Assembly (NCBI RefSeq): GCF_046498525.1
Contig: NZ_JAWOAN010000097.1
Coordinates: forward strand, 2,567 to 66,566
Source: Yoonia sp.
Lineage (GTDB): Bacteria > Pseudomonadota > Alphaproteobacteria > Rhodobacterales > Rhodobacteraceae
Direction: 5' to 3'
Length of the DNA: 64,000 bases
Below the pieces are notes generated by a model, which worked only from the letters and a program-made list of their open reading frames with translations, had not been told where the DNA came from and made no database searches. The translations under genes and the position numbers were made by a program. Positions 3,553-29,801 of the stretch are shown here, in pieces; within the stretch, counting starts at the first letter, position 1; each line of letters starts with the position of its first letter.

Positions 3553-3770
3553 CGACACCCTGTGCAAGTCGGCCTTCGGTTCATCCAGAGCTGCCGGAAA
3601 CGTAGGTCGCGCATCGCTGTCTTTGAAATCAGTCGCGGGCGGACTGTAGCCAGTCCACCCGCATTACCCTTCGGGGATGATATCCATGTTTACGGGATAT
3701 GGGTCAGCTGCAATCGCCGAGGGAGGCGCAGCAACTGGTCGGCTGTGCCATGCCTATCATCAAACGGCGC

Positions 3771-3980
3771 TTAGCAGTCTCGGCAGGTCTTGAGGCCAAT
3801 GATGCTGTAAAGCGGACAACTCCCCACAAGGGCCGTCAGCGCGAAAACGGCAGCAACGATGACGGCGAGCCAGAAGAGGATGCCGGTGCCAAGTACATTC
3901 GTGCCCACCGCCAGAAACAGCAGCACCGCTGCAATCGCCAACCGCCCGACGCGGTCGATTTTTCCCATATTCGTTGTCAT
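3771..3980 (-). CDS. DUF2892 (YgaP-like transmembrane domain) small membrane protein
   Basis: MTTNMGKIDRVGRLAIAAVLLFLAVG…GSCPLYSIIGLKTC matches the DUF2892 pattern (N.G..DR..R…CP.Y…G). GGAG lies 8 nt before the ATG at 3980. Confidence 0.7.
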   Translation of the reverse strand: MTTNMGKIDRVGRLAIAAVLLFLAVGTNVLGTGILFWLAVIVAAVFALTALVGSCPLYSIIGLKTCRDC

Positions 3981-4083
3981 GTCACACTCCATTGCGAATC
4001 AATAAAATGATACTCGCATGGCAAGGACCGGCGGTTCGGTGACTAGGTCACCAAACTTGCCCAAGCCGAAACAAGGACAGGTA

Positions 4084-4764
4084 TCAGGCCTGTATGCCAG
4101 ATGATTTGACCAGCCGTTCGAGGCCCTCTTTGCCAAGCAGGTGGACCTCACCCCGGGACTGCTCGATCCAGCCGCGCCGGTGAAATTCGGACAATGTTCT
4201 CGAGACCACTTCGCGCGCCGTTCCCAGTTCTGTGCCAAGGACAGCATGTGTGGCATGGACAACGCCCTTGGTATCCGCCAACTCCAGCAAGCGCGCAGCC
4301 AAGCGCACGTCCATGCGCTGAAAAACGATATCGTCGATGAGTGTGAACAGATCGGTGATCCGGCGCGAATAGGCCGTAAAGACAAACGCCCGAAACAACG
4401 GCGACTTGCCTACCAGATCGTCGAAAGTCTTGCGCGGGATCGCAACAGCGGTGACATCCGTCTCCGATCTCCCTTCCGCCGAGTAATTCTCGAAGGCCAG
4501 CATACAGGCTGTCGTTAATACGCAGCTTTCACCGGCGTGGACCCGGTACAAAAAGACTTCGCGACCGGTTTCGGATTTTTGCTGGACCTTCACGGACCCG
4601 TCCAGAAGTAGCCAGAGATTATCGGCCGTTCCCCCCGGTGCAAAAATCTCTGTCCCGGCGGGCACAGCGACAATCTTGCTGCCCGCTTCCAGTTCGGCCC
4701 GTATTTCGGCCGGAAGGCCGCTCAGTCCATTGAATTTATCGACCCAGGAATTGTCCATACTCAT
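4084..4764 (-). CDS. Crp/Fnr family transcriptional regulator (no N-terminal Cys cluster)
   Basis: A cNMP-binding-like beta-barrel region, then a C-terminal HTH …THAVLGTELGTAREVVSRTLSEFHRRGWI with the E--SR recognition motif typical of FNR-box binders. Start set at MSMDNSW (4764). Confidence 0.8.
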   Translation of the reverse strand: MSMDNSWVDKFNGLSGLPAEIRAELEAGSKIVAVPAGTEIFAPGGTADNLWLLLDGSVKVQQKSETGREVFLYRVHAGESCVLTTACMLAFENYSAEGRSETDVTAVAIPRKTFDDLVGKSPLFRAFVFTAYSRRITDLFTLIDDIVFQRMDVRLAARLLELADTKGVVHATHAVLGTELGTAREVVSRTLSEFHRRGWIEQSRGEVHLLGKEGLERLVKSSGIQA

Positions 4765-27832: not shown

Positions 27833-28216
27833 ATGGAAAAAGACCCTTCCTTCAACGTTCTCGGAAGCGCCTTGGCACCCTGCTCCATTGATCCCATGAC
27901 CGGATTTTTCCGAAATGGGGCATGTGATACCTGCGCGGCTGATCAAGGGAGCCACACGGTATGCGCGGTCATGACGGATGAATTCCTCGCCTTTTCAAAA
28001 TACGTCGGTAATGACCTCAGCACACCGCGGCCTGAATATGGTTTTCCCGGGCTGAAGGCCGGCGACGGCTGGTGCCTTTGCGCCAGCCGGTTTTTGCAGG
28101 CTCACGAAGAAGGGTGCGCGCCGCAGGTCAACCTGCATGCCACCCACGTGCGGGCACTCGAGATTGTTTCGATCGACATCCTGCGCACCCATGCGGCGCA
28201 TGACCCCGAAAACTGA
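27833..28216 (+). CDS. DUF2237 family protein
   Basis: …NVLGSALAPCSIDPMTGFFRNGACDT…GSHTVCAVMTDEFLAFS…GDGWCLCASRF… follows the conserved Cys pattern of DUF2237. Confidence 0.75.
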   Translation: MEKDPSFNVLGSALAPCSIDPMTGFFRNGACDTCAADQGSHTVCAVMTDEFLAFSKYVGNDLSTPRPEYGFPGLKAGDGWCLCASRFLQAHEEGCAPQVNLHATHVRALEIVSIDILRTHAAHDPEN

Positions 28217-28696
28217 TCAGGCCTTCGCCATCAGATCGTCAATAAACAGGCTAAGCAGCTGGGTCCGGCCGGAAACCCCCGCTTTGCGGTAAATTGCGTT
28301 GGTTTGTGCTTTGATCGTGCCCTCGCTGACATTGCGCAGGGTCGCAATTTCTTGTGTGGACATGCCTTTTATCGCAAATAGCGCCACGTCGCGCTCGGCA
28401 GGGGTCAGCACCCACGCGGCAAAGCGTTCTTCCAACACATCCATGAATGCACCCGAGGCCACCCTAAGCTGATCTTCGACCGCAACATTGCGCGCCATCG
28501 TGCGGCGCAATACGATCCACCCCAACACCACACCAAGCAAAAGGCCCAGTGCCGCGCCCAATTCAACCAATTCGTAAAGTTGCCAACTCAGCGGACCGAC
28601 GCCGAGCACCGACGCCAGGATGCGGGAGACAAAAAAGATGGCGCAGAGAAGCTGCACCACCACAATCACGACAACCGTCCATTGACCTTTCTCCAA
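28217..28696 (-). CDS. Membrane-anchored LuxR/GerE-type HTH protein (2 TM helices, no receiver or ligand domain)
   Basis: Two hydrophobic helices (WTVVVIVVVQLLCAIFFVSRIL; LVELGAALGLLLGVVLGWIVL), then …LTPAERDVALFAIKGMSTQEIATLRNVSEGTIKAQTNAIYRKAGVSGRTQL. TTG start at 28696 with GAAGGAAAA upstream. Confidence 0.75.
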   Translation of the reverse strand: MEKGQWTVVVIVVVQLLCAIFFVSRILASVLGVGPLSWQLYELVELGAALGLLLGVVLGWIVLRRTMARNVAVEDQLRVASGAFMDVLEERFAAWVLTPAERDVALFAIKGMSTQEIATLRNVSEGTIKAQTNAIYRKAGVSGRTQLLSLFIDDLMAKA

Positions 28697-28722
28697 ATTG
28701 GTTTTCCTTCGGTCAGCTCGGA

Positions 28723-29166
28723 TCAGTCATCGTCGTCATCATCATCATCATCGTCGTCATCATCATCATCATCGTCGTCATCATCATCATCGTCGTCATC
28801 GTCGTCGTCGTCGTCATCTTCATCATCACGGTCCACCCCCGAGTCGCTGTCACGGTCATCTGAACTCGTACTGCTGCGCGGATTGAACAGCGTCGGAGCG
28901 TCATCATCAGTGTCCTCGTCGGCATCCAAAGTCCGCCAGTAGTCGCGCAAGATTTCTCCGGTCTGTGGATTGAACACCAACTCGCGCCGCAGATCATCGC
29001 GCACCGCGACGACACGAATACGCCCCAGCCACGTACGCTGCAACGTAATCTCGGTAAATCCCTGCCCACGTAATTGCGACACGATCTGATCCTGCACGGA
29101 CTGGGCCGCCGCAAAATGCGGCGTCCCAGCGAGTGCAAGACAAATGATGACCCTTTTCAACATCAT
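28723..29166 (-). CDS. Secreted PepSY-like protein with a C-terminal run of 31 consecutive Asp
   Basis: Signal MMLKRVIICLALAGTPHFAAA|Q, PepSY-like core …GFTEITLQRTWLGRIRVVAVRDDLRRELVFNPQTGEILRDYW, an acidic linker, then D x31 up to the stop. Confidence 0.7.
   Translation of the reverse strand: MMLKRVIICLALAGTPHFAAAQSVQDQIVSQLRGQGFTEITLQRTWLGRIRVVAVRDDLRRELVFNPQTGEILRDYWRTLDADEDTDDDAPTLFNPRSSTSSDDRDSDSGVDRDDEDDDDDDDDDDDDDDDDDDDDDDDDDDDDDDD
28726..28818 (-). repeat. (GAY)31 trinucleotide tract with 21-nt higher-order units
   Basis: The plus strand reads gtcatc gtcgtcatcatcatcatcatc gtcgtcatcatcatcatcatc gtcgtcatcatcatcatc gtcgtcatc gtcgtcgtcgtcgtcatc. Confidence 0.95.
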
Positions 29167-29192
29167 CTGATCAACATGCACATTTTGAATGA

Positions 29193-29654
29193 CTATTCGT
29201 CATCATCATCATCGTCTTCGTCGTCATCATCGTCTTCGTCATCATCATCGTCTTCGTCATCGTCATCTTCGTTATCTTCGTCATCATCATCATCATCATC
29301 TTCGTCATCGTCATCTTCGTCATCGTCATCGTCATCGTCATCTTCGTCATCGTCATCGTCAAAGAAGTCTTCATCATCATCCTTGATCCTGACGCCGGAC
29401 ACAAACTCATCATCGTCATCAATCGTTTCAACTTCTTGCTCGAGAATATTACCGGCTAGATCATAGATGGCCTCGAGCTTACGGCCATTGCGGATCGCCT
29501 CGACCTTGATTTGTGTCGGACCGTTTGTAACCTCGATGCTTTCGTAGTTTTGCGCCTGCAGCGCCGCGATCACCTTTTCAGCGACTGACTGCGCATGAAC
29601 AGCACCCGCGCTGAGTGCCACCAACGTCGTCGTGGAAAGTAAGAGCTTTTTCAT
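29193..29654 (-). CDS. Secreted PepSY-like protein with a 55-residue Asp/Glu tail
   Basis: Signal MKKLLLSTTTLVALSAGAVHA|Q, core …NYESIEVTNGPTQIKVEAIRNGRKLEAIYDLAGNILEQEVE, and a tail in which 54 of 55 residues are D/E. AAGGATGA lies before the ATG at 29654. Confidence 0.7.
   Translation of the reverse strand: MKKLLLSTTTLVALSAGAVHAQSVAEKVIAALQAQNYESIEVTNGPTQIKVEAIRNGRKLEAIYDLAGNILEQEVETIDDDDEFVSGVRIKDDDEDFFDDDDDEDDDDDDDDEDDDDEDDDDDDDEDNEDDDDEDDDDDEDDDDDEDDDDDDE
29196..29360 (-). repeat. GAY/GAA codon repeat tract with 18-nt higher-order units
   Basis: The plus strand contains repeated gtcttcgtcatcatcatc / atcttcgtcatcgtcatc units across 165 nt. Confidence 0.9.
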
Positions 29655-29779
29655 GTCTGATTCATCCTTATGTGTGACGGTCGCACCATACGATCCGTTC
29701 AACACGAGAACAGCGCAACGCACACCGCTTTGATACGCATCGTCGGTTTATATCAGCGTTTGTAAACCCGATAACGAAA

Positions 29780-29801
29780 GGCCTAAACCAAAGTTTAGGC
29801 C
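29780..29801 (-). terminator. Hairpin terminator 8 nt after the trpB stop
   Basis: GGCCTAAAC-CAAA-GTTTAGGCC is a perfect 9-bp stem, followed on the minus strand by TTTCGTTAT. Confidence 0.55.

Follow-up and report, generated by a model that had tools for sequence, protein, structure and literature searches.

A Rhodobacterales gene module in which predicted secreted PepSY-like proteins with polyacidic tails accompany a putative membrane-tethered GerE-type regulator

What is the role of two small proteins that end in little else than acidic residues, and that are encoded immediately upstream of a transcription factor that appears to be anchored in the membrane? The question is raised by a stretch of 64,000 nucleotides (nt) from Yoonia sp. 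(Alphaproteobacteria; Rhodobacterales; Rhodobacteraceae; contig NZ_JAWOAN010000097.1), hereafter the window, in which three genes of the minus strand, here called A, B and C, follow one another. A and B each encode a predicted signal peptide, a PepSY_2-like domain and an acidic tail, and C encodes a protein with two predicted transmembrane (TM) helices and a LuxR-type (GerE) helix-turn-helix (HTH). We propose, tentatively and with somewhat less than even confidence, that they form a conserved envelope-signalling operon of the Rhodobacterales in which B docks on C, the tails respond to cations, and C regulates its own operon via palindromic sites. The operon probably senses something at the cell envelope; the signal is perhaps metal ions.

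A genome scan with the C alignment, taking one genome per species, found at least 559 loci that encode a C relative, and 80 of them were retained. The closest relatives of C are in Yoonia, Loktanella and Cognatiyoonia; the retained loci span Yoonia, Loktanella, Octadecabacter, Tateyamaria, Roseovarius, Ruegeria and Celeribacter, and also include Marivita, Silicimonas, Rhodobacter, Tabrizicola, Rubellimicrobium and many metagenome-assembled genomes. A B-type gene lies directly upstream of C in approximately 77 of the 79 informative Rhodobacterales genome loci. The reverse test, which starts from B-type domains in metagenomes (80 loci in an independent collection, found with a search pattern that selects close B relatives), places C 209-622 nt past the end of the domain in all 65 loci with enough sequence. 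The co-occurrence of the poly-Asp PepSY gene with the membrane LuxR-type gene, which an earlier sequence-only reading of the window had put forward for checking, is thus borne out in both collections. B and C form a close and obligate pair of genes: the distance from the B stop codon to the C start has a median of 27.5 nt and is at most 100 nt in 74 of 76 cases (26 nt in the window). A is a looser companion, found upstream of B in approximately 52 of the 80 genome loci and absent from about one third, with a median of approximately 92 nt between the A stop and the B start. The same-strand module of three closely spaced genes proposed from the window is supported as a conserved unit, with A as a member that is not obligate.

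Could the acidic tracts be artefacts of assembly, annotation or slippage, or could the open reading frames (ORFs) be chance neighbours without a joint function? Short-read contigs do break within the GAT/GAC repeat: five Logan contigs (L161-L165), in which C is 99% identical to that of the window, all stop 87-90 nt upstream of C, and these ends fall inside the repeat of the B tail. Moreover, gene callers rarely report A and B, for which the databases hold 9 and 51 relatives, respectively, compared with 5662 for C; the names of the A and B relatives are all 'hypothetical' or 'PepSY domain-containing'. The assembly breaks in the repeat probably explain this scarcity. Against an artefact, a single frame runs from the conserved domain through the tail to the stop codon in 160 independent loci (80 from genomes, including the complete chromosomes L002 and L036, and 80 from metagenomes), gene order and spacing are conserved across many genera, and the tail codons are interleaved GAT and GAC (plus GAA), with a longest run of one codon of 5-6, so that the tails are not a pure microsatellite. 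The data contradict this explanation, to which we assign practically no probability, and it is excluded; the recurrence of the architecture in complete chromosomes speaks against the earlier concern that resequencing might remove the tails.

The flanks of the module are conserved as well. In the window, Pfam identifies L25/Ctc, Pth and DUF2237 on the plus strand and a PALP enzyme (TrpB) and PRAI (TrpF) on the minus strand, and the corresponding order, trpF-trpB-[A]-B-C followed by convergent DUF2237-pth-L25, recurs across many Rhodobacterales genera. The conserved flanks and synteny indicate a vertically inherited core locus, not the accessory position between pth/DUF2237 and trpB that had been assumed. 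No histidine kinase, response regulator or peptidase gene was found in the conserved neighbourhood examined. A literature search found no description of this operon, or of a Sec-exported PepSY protein with a poly-Asp tail.

C itself has no recognizable sensory domain. The HTH matches Pfam GerE (PF00196) with 35.9 bits (E 5.7e-9; cut-off 23.5), and the Pfam scan of C returned no family outside the HTH, neither a receiver nor an autoinducer-binding domain. Hydropathy places TM1 at approximately amino acids (aa) 5-30 and TM2 at approximately aa 43-63, followed by RRTMAR, and this topology fits an N-in/C-in hairpin with a cytoplasmic HTH; the N-terminal 95 residues consist of the two TM helices and a linker. 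Pfam and hydropathy thereby confirm the initial description of C as two TM helices with a GerE HTH and without a receiver or autoinducer domain. A search with residues 1-95 against 1.84 billion representative proteins found 195 clusters (at 50% identity), nearly all of proteins of 150-200 aa, and even distant relatives of C (35-45% identity) keep the two TM helices and GerE, and mostly also W..[RH]E..E. C is a compact family in which a single predicted architecture recurs.

Several familiar identities for C were considered and rejected. A quorum-sensing LuxR receptor would have an autoinducer-binding domain, which C lacks; a NarL/FixJ response regulator would have a receiver domain, which C also lacks, and there is no kinase gene among the conserved neighbours. 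A ToxR/CadC-type protein is excluded by the C-terminal GerE HTH, the two TM segments and the outer loop of approximately 10 residues. The best curated NCBIfam match is NF047608 ('LIC13292 family transcriptional regulator'), but it reaches 59 bits against a cut-off of 200 and is confined to model positions 89-162, which correspond to the linker and HTH of C, and membership was rejected on that score. NCBIfam response-regulator models likewise match the HTH only, far under their cut-offs. The nearest solved relatives of this HTH are the DNA-binding domains of NarL-type response regulators such as VraR.

Conservation within C points to two regions. Across 81 orthologues, the HTH and the preceding linker helix are nearly invariant, and conservation in the membrane part reaches at least 98% for Q15, F22, P35, W38 and E42, and at least 90% for E45. 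Four of these residues form the motif P35-x2-W38-x3-E42-x2-E45, which maps to the short predicted outer loop and the first part of TM2. An ExxE element is found in 77 of the 81 orthologues, as RExxE in 44, HExxE in 12 and YExxE in 12 ([RH]ExxE in 56/81).

The folded domains of A and B are divergent. In the window, B matches PepSY_2 (PF13670) with 14.1 bits (E 0.047), below the cut-off of 24.3, and A has no Pfam PepSY match (PF03413 or PF13670); whole-protein Pfam and NCBIfam scans of both returned only low-complexity noise (CobT, CDC45, RNase E). Among orthologues, PepSY_2 was matched by 28 of 34 A-type proteins (best E 8.5e-8) and 20 of 49 B-type proteins (best E 1.9e-4), and it is by far the commonest Pfam match among members of both types. 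In addition, three database relatives carry a precomputed PF13670 match and one A orthologue is named 'PepSY domain-containing protein' by NCBI. BLASTP found no alignment between the N-terminal halves of A and B, but hhalign, comparing 34 A-type with 49 B-type domains, finds them homologous (98.4% probability, E 6.5e-15), and iterated hidden Markov models (HMMs) seeded from A and from B converge on one common set of ORFs. A and B are, by these profile comparisons, divergent PepSY_2-like domains: the PepSY assignment made by eye holds at the family level, while the window sequences themselves remain below the Pfam thresholds.

Predicted structures are compatible with this assignment. Taking the PepSY fold as a small alpha+beta domain with one helix packed on a four-stranded antiparallel sheet, AlphaFold2 gives for A a helix (16-34) and strands at 39-44, 48-55, 58-65, 70-77 and 87-92, with a predicted local distance difference test (pLDDT) score of approximately 90, and for B a helix (24-34) and four strands with pLDDT above 90; the predicted topology is consistent with a PepSY fold. 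Searching PDB sequences with the A-type domain profile returned nothing meaningful. Both proteins begin with a positively charged N-terminus and a hydrophobic core followed by an AxA-Q site, features shared by 40 of the 45 A-type and 65-75 of the 78 B-type orthologues, signal peptides being judged by a heuristic. A and B are extracytoplasmic proteins with predicted Sec export. A lipoprotein identity was rejected, as there is no conserved lipobox.

In some A-type proteins two or three PepSY-like domains stand in tandem before the acidic tail (L059:3592-4386, L074:3534-4538 and L012:4012-4446).

With C in the membrane and PepSY domains outside it, one alternative is that these domains inhibit or chaperone a periplasmic or membrane peptidase, with C released or destroyed by proteolysis and the tails acting as degrons or as elements that recruit or repel the protease. 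Membrane-tethered transcription factors are often under regulated proteolysis. The PepSY family, moreover, owes its name to a suggested role in the regulation of proteases (Yeats et al. 2004, as cited in PMC12714742). We nevertheless find this explanation improbable: the neighbourhood contains no conserved peptidase gene, the HTH that follows TM2 would already be cytoplasmic and DNA binding would need no release, and the sequence offers no pointer to a cleavage site.

The most conspicuous part of A and B is their C-terminus. The sequence-only account of two minus-strand genes, each with a signal peptide, a small domain (approximately 57 aa) and an acidic C-terminus, agrees exactly with the ORFs and translations, and the translations also confirm its tail counts: the B tail ends in exactly 31 consecutive Asp, immediately followed by TGA, and 54 of the final 55 residues of A are Asp or Glu (D/E). 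The net charge of the mature protein is approximately -66 for A and -41 for B. Tails of 46 A-type orthologues have a median length of 85.5 aa and a median D/E content of 65%, Asp making up approximately 87% of the acidic residues; in 79 B-type orthologues the medians are 72 aa and 44%, with 21% Gly and 10% Ser overall. The pLDDT of the B tail is 50-64, which we read as disorder. The conserved trait of the tails is a long, disordered, usually strongly anionic extension, not a fixed sequence.

A semi-conserved hydrophobic patch (LFNP, LFDP, LVDP or IIDD) occurs in the B linker, 12-20 residues past the domain and before the acidic run. In the window it is PTLFNP (aa 92-97), and a strict pattern matches 28 of 79 B-type proteins; the patch could represent a fifth strand, as in the prediction for A, or else a short linear motif.

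Upstream of the operon lie two palindromes, IR1 and IR2 (inverted repeats; Table 1). The IR1 core, TAAAC-N4-GTTTA, is usually flanked by complementary G/C, and IR2, which always begins 30 nt past the beginning of IR1, is followed by a CAATGG-like block. Each is unique in the window (IR1 core expected 0.00 times). In 53 of 60 genome loci IR1 occupies the interval from trpB to the first PepSY gene, and 68 of the 74 copies counted over 720 kb of loci lie upstream of the operon. Of the 80 genome and 80 metagenome loci, 40 and 32, respectively, have the composite of IR1, 16 nt and IR2; it is always oriented with the operon and does not occur on the opposite strand or in a second copy. Given their conserved half-site, their fixed phasing and the near-invariance of the HTH in C, IR1 and IR2 are a natural candidate operator for a GerE-type dimer. 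A dispersed REP-like (repetitive extragenic palindromic) repeat was rejected as an identity for IR1, as it is found almost only at this locus, and CtrA, FnrL and LexA boxes were considered and set aside, as their consensus sequences differ. A sigma-70 promoter scan found no site between trpB and A. In the closest genome relatives, three Yoonia and Loktanella loci (L001, L002 and L005) whose C is 85-87% identical to that of the window, the order is trpB-IR1-B-C, A is absent and IR2 is degenerate; A was lost or gained recently within the genus and is a non-obligate member of the module.

How could these parts work together? In the mechanism that we propose, the PepSY domain of B would be a periplasmic co-sensor that docks on the outer face of C, formed by the loop and the start of TM2, and docking would set the dimerisation or DNA-binding state of C, in analogy to the action of DbfQ on the kinase DbfS. 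Through their polyanionic tails, A and B would respond to polycations or multivalent cations (Fe, Ca/Mg, other metals, cationic peptides, polyamines); alternatively, the tails could concentrate or buffer such ions near the sensor. The glutamates of the [R/H/Y]ExxE motif of C might form a direct metal site, by analogy with BqsS and PmrB, or a contact for the conserved arginines of B. A dimer of C would bind the TAAAC/GTTTA palindromes and autoregulate the operon, probably controlling further, unseen targets as well. A would be a paralogous and dispensable second modulator or buffer.

The most serious competitor of this mechanism dispenses with contact between the proteins: C alone would sense a membrane or envelope cue via its TM hairpin, and A and B would be products under its control, without feedback on C. 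They could then serve as periplasmic buffers or stores of di- and trivalent cations, as decoys for cationic antimicrobials or polyamines, or as binders of mineral or metal surfaces. The layout of the operon, with a candidate autoregulatory operator, is as this explanation would have it, and net charges of -41 and -66 on long tails suit a binder of high capacity and low affinity. The loss of A from some loci, and the two or three PepSY domains that it has in others, are expected of an effector and not of a precise signalling partner, and metal-binding PepSY proteins are known (PMC9988556). On the other hand, the pairing of B with C, with exceptions in 0 of 65 and approximately 2 of 79 loci, is stricter than is typical of a regulator and its target, and 16 of 79 B tails are not acidic. 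Furthermore, the folded domain of B, in whose alignment the L, G, T, L, R, R-E and R-D columns are invariant, is far better conserved than the tail; a constrained domain beside a variable tail suggests a specific, Arg-rich contact surface rather than bulk charge. We therefore regard the explanation by controlled products as unlikely, if still substantial.

One locus bears on both explanations. L064:4270-5474 (Thalassovita taeanensis) is the sole genome locus with room for, but without, a PepSY gene upstream of C; an unrelated ORF of 119 aa with a signal peptide is found instead, and IR1 is retained 610 nt upstream of C. Its C is also the sole one to have lost all three of W38, E42 and E45 (to V, Q and Q). 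The outer-face motif thus degenerates exactly where B is absent, which argues against controlled products alone; joint loss of the motif and of the PepSY gene is what would be expected of a B protein that acts together with the outer face of C.

A number of observations weigh against our proposal. The correlation in L064 is a single case, and only approximately 8-10 residues of C lie outside the membrane, a tiny docking surface compared with the sensor domain of DbfS. The window C carries YELVE, that is YExxE and not RExxE or HExxE, and ExxE, as a short motif at the membrane interface, could be purely structural. The 16 B tails mentioned above have less than 30% D/E and are Gly/Ser-rich instead, so that extreme negative charge is not strictly required; B-tail acidity is unrelated to the variant of the loop motif in C, and the presence of A shows no pattern either. 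Two Foldseek searches of the PDB gave no significant match (best E 0.03-0.1), and PepSY/BLIP-like entries (5boi, 4exr, 4fr9, 4k61 and 4hbr) were among the weak matches only. Finally, a terminator scan picks out IR1 as a terminator-like hairpin behind trpB, although the sequences of terminators are not usually conserved between genera.

A bolder version of the proposal, which taken as a whole we consider quite unlikely, would make the module a new class of one-component envelope sensor: a membrane LuxR-type factor without a sensor domain and with an obligate PepSY partner, a poly-Asp polyelectrolyte antenna, an ExxE site for hand-over or contact and a TAAAC/GTTTA operator, acting as a core regulator across the order Rhodobacterales. 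The candidate cations for such an antenna are iron, calcium, rare earths and polycations.

Table 1. Coordinates of the genes, protein regions and palindromes of the module in the window.
Feature	Position	Strand	Remarks
Gene A: predicted secreted PepSY_2-like protein with D/E tail	29193..29654	-	153 aa; ORF and translation
Predicted parts of A			signal peptide aa 1-21; domain aa 22-76; fifth strand aa 87-92; acidic tail after
Acidic tail of A, aa 77-153	29196..29426	-	
Gene B: predicted secreted PepSY_2-like protein with poly-Asp tail	28723..29166	-	147 aa; ORF and translation
Predicted parts of B			signal peptide aa 1-21; domain aa 22-79; linker; 31 terminal Asp
Disordered (predicted) acidic tail of B, aa 80-147	28726..28929	-	
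Gene C: putative membrane-tethered GerE/LuxR-type one-component regulator	28217..28696	-	159 aa; TTG start
Predicted periplasmic-face motif of C, aa 35-45	28562..28594	-	P-L-S-W-Q-L-Y-E-L-V-E (P35, W38, E42, E45)
GerE-type helix-turn-helix of C, aa 96-149	28250..28411	-	Pfam GerE
IR1, GGCC-TAAAC-TTTG-GTTTA-GGCC	29780..29801		9 nt past trpB stop; candidate operator and/or trpB terminator hairpin
IR2, GGTTTA-N12-TAAACC	29745..29768		approximately 92 nt upstream of A start codon; candidate operator

Several loci contain genes in addition to those of the window. B-like PepSY paralogues are found near the module in L054:2534-3085, L060:2611-3135, L067:2055-2831 and L009:6044-6556 (minus strand); their tails are not acidic (3-8 D/E in 79-114 residues). 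A second copy of IR1 lies upstream of the paralogue in L054, L060 and L067, the order in L067 being trpB-IR1-B'-IR1-A-B-C. In four genome loci a gene of 206-230 aa with TIGR02466 / 2OG-FeII_Oxy_5 similarity stands between A and B on the same strand (L009:3817-4437, L058:3679-4371, L035 at approximately 3790-4401 and L049 at approximately 3751-4353). Its product, a putative 2-oxoglutarate/Fe(II) oxygenase, is absent from the window and the other loci; such an enzyme might hint at a connection with iron or at a modification of Asp residues.

At the other end of the module, C and the convergent DUF2237 gene abut at 28216-28217 with zero intergenic bases, as they do in near-identical contigs, and a terminator-like hairpin lies within the DUF2237 gene (28066-28089, plus strand). 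ORFs for poly-Ser, poly-His/Arg, poly-Val/Ile and Met/Thr proteins over 28549-29466 on both strands are by-products of (GAY)n and not genes. An Rfam scan of the window gave a best E of 0.008 and no family at gathering score; sub-threshold matches to archaeal C/D-box snoRNAs at 28720-28788 and 29282-29330 (minus strand) were rejected as artefacts, the GATGA repeats mimicking C/D boxes.

The Rhodobacterales, with the roseobacter group and its relatives, are among the most abundant and best-studied marine heterotrophs. The operon sits beside trpB in their core genome, yet its A and B genes either bear the annotation 'hypothetical' or drop out through assembly breaks. If our proposal is correct, the recently recognised tuning of membrane sensors by PepSY accessory proteins would extend from two-component systems to a minimal one-component regulator, and the module would be a natural case of a long poly-Asp tract that works in the bacterial periplasm. 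It would also provide a tractable handle on the sensing of metals or envelope stress, with three small genes, a defined motif and a defined candidate operator. As possible metal- or mineral-binding modules, the PepSY proteins with poly-Asp tails could be of further interest.

Which known systems does the module resemble? ToxR, CadC and TcpP are inner-membrane transcription factors that couple an extracytoplasmic cue to DNA binding, and some of them need a partner protein in the periplasm or membrane (ToxS, TcpH, LysP). Their DNA-binding part is an OmpR-type winged helix at the N-terminus, accompanied by a single TM helix and a sizeable periplasmic domain, whereas C has an N-terminal TM hairpin, a C-terminal GerE-type HTH and, by its predicted topology, essentially no periplasmic domain.

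For the tails, comparisons come from other compartments. Calsequestrin has an acidic tail and binds Ca2+ with high capacity. In HMGB1 (tail) and Hfq (C-terminal domain), a disordered D/E tract is attached to a small folded domain and may fold back on basic surfaces (PMC7261955, PMC5606850). Unlike A and B, which are predicted to be exported, these acidic-tailed proteins are eukaryotic nuclear, sarcoplasmic-reticulum or cytoplasmic bacterial proteins.

Extracytoplasmic PepSY proteins that bind multivalent metal ions are represented by the lanpepsy protein LanP, which binds lanthanides (PMC9988556), and by UipA, which binds uranyl and iron (as cited in PMC12714742). They resemble A and B in location and domain; their binding is via the PepSY domains themselves, of which they have two or three, and they have neither a poly-Asp tail nor an obligate membrane LuxR-type partner.

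The closest parallels are PepSY accessory proteins of two-component systems, whose neighbourhoods are enriched in PepSY genes more than 60-fold over chance and which form widespread modules (PMC12714742). In Vibrio cholerae, dbfRS is preceded by the gene for DbfQ, a small secreted PepSY protein that binds to the sensor domain of DbfS and shifts DbfS to phosphatase mode, in a pathway that responds to outer-membrane damage (PMC12714742). B, like DbfQ, is a small protein with predicted Sec export and PepSY as its only folded domain, encoded on the same strand directly upstream of a membrane signal transducer, and the likely mode, an accessory protein that modulates the transducer from the periplasm, would be the same; binding is shown for DbfQ and proposed for B by analogy. 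The differences are equally clear. Instead of a kinase and a response regulator, C is a single protein of 159 aa with two TM helices, an outer loop of approximately 10 residues and a GerE HTH, and DbfQ is a single-domain protein of approximately 12 kDa when mature, for which no poly-Asp tail is described (PMC12714742), while A and B are tailed.

The arrangement of two PepSY genes has its counterpart in Pseudomonas aeruginosa, where a pair precedes bqsRS and the proximal gene alone is predicted to encode a kinase-binding protein (PMC12714742). The RExxE of BqsS is required for sensing of Fe(II), and HExxE is the Fe(III) motif of PmrB (PMC4358008). As with BqsP/BqsQ-BqsRS (CarRS), two paralogous genes lie upstream here and the regulator-proximal one is the likely direct partner: B is proximal, obligate and better conserved, and A is distal and optional. 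BqsRS, whose signals are Fe2+ and Ca2+, has its RExxE on the periplasmic side and an autoregulated operon; C orthologues mostly have RExxE or HExxE at the predicted outer face, and autoregulation is a proposal. Unlike C, BqsS is a kinase and BqsR an OmpR-type response regulator, and the RExxE of BqsS lies in a folded periplasmic domain, not at the start of a TM helix. We know of no polyacidic tails on BqsP or BqsQ.

The earlier statement that no characterised system has this design was too strong, since DbfQ-DbfRS and bqsP/bqsQ-bqsRS constitute an established class (PMC12714742, PMC4358008). The module resembles these systems in its likely mode of action and is not a member of their class, because it has no kinase, response regulator or periplasmic sensor domain. 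What is new here is the membrane-tethered GerE-type one-component partner in place of a kinase and response regulator, together with the poly-Asp tails.

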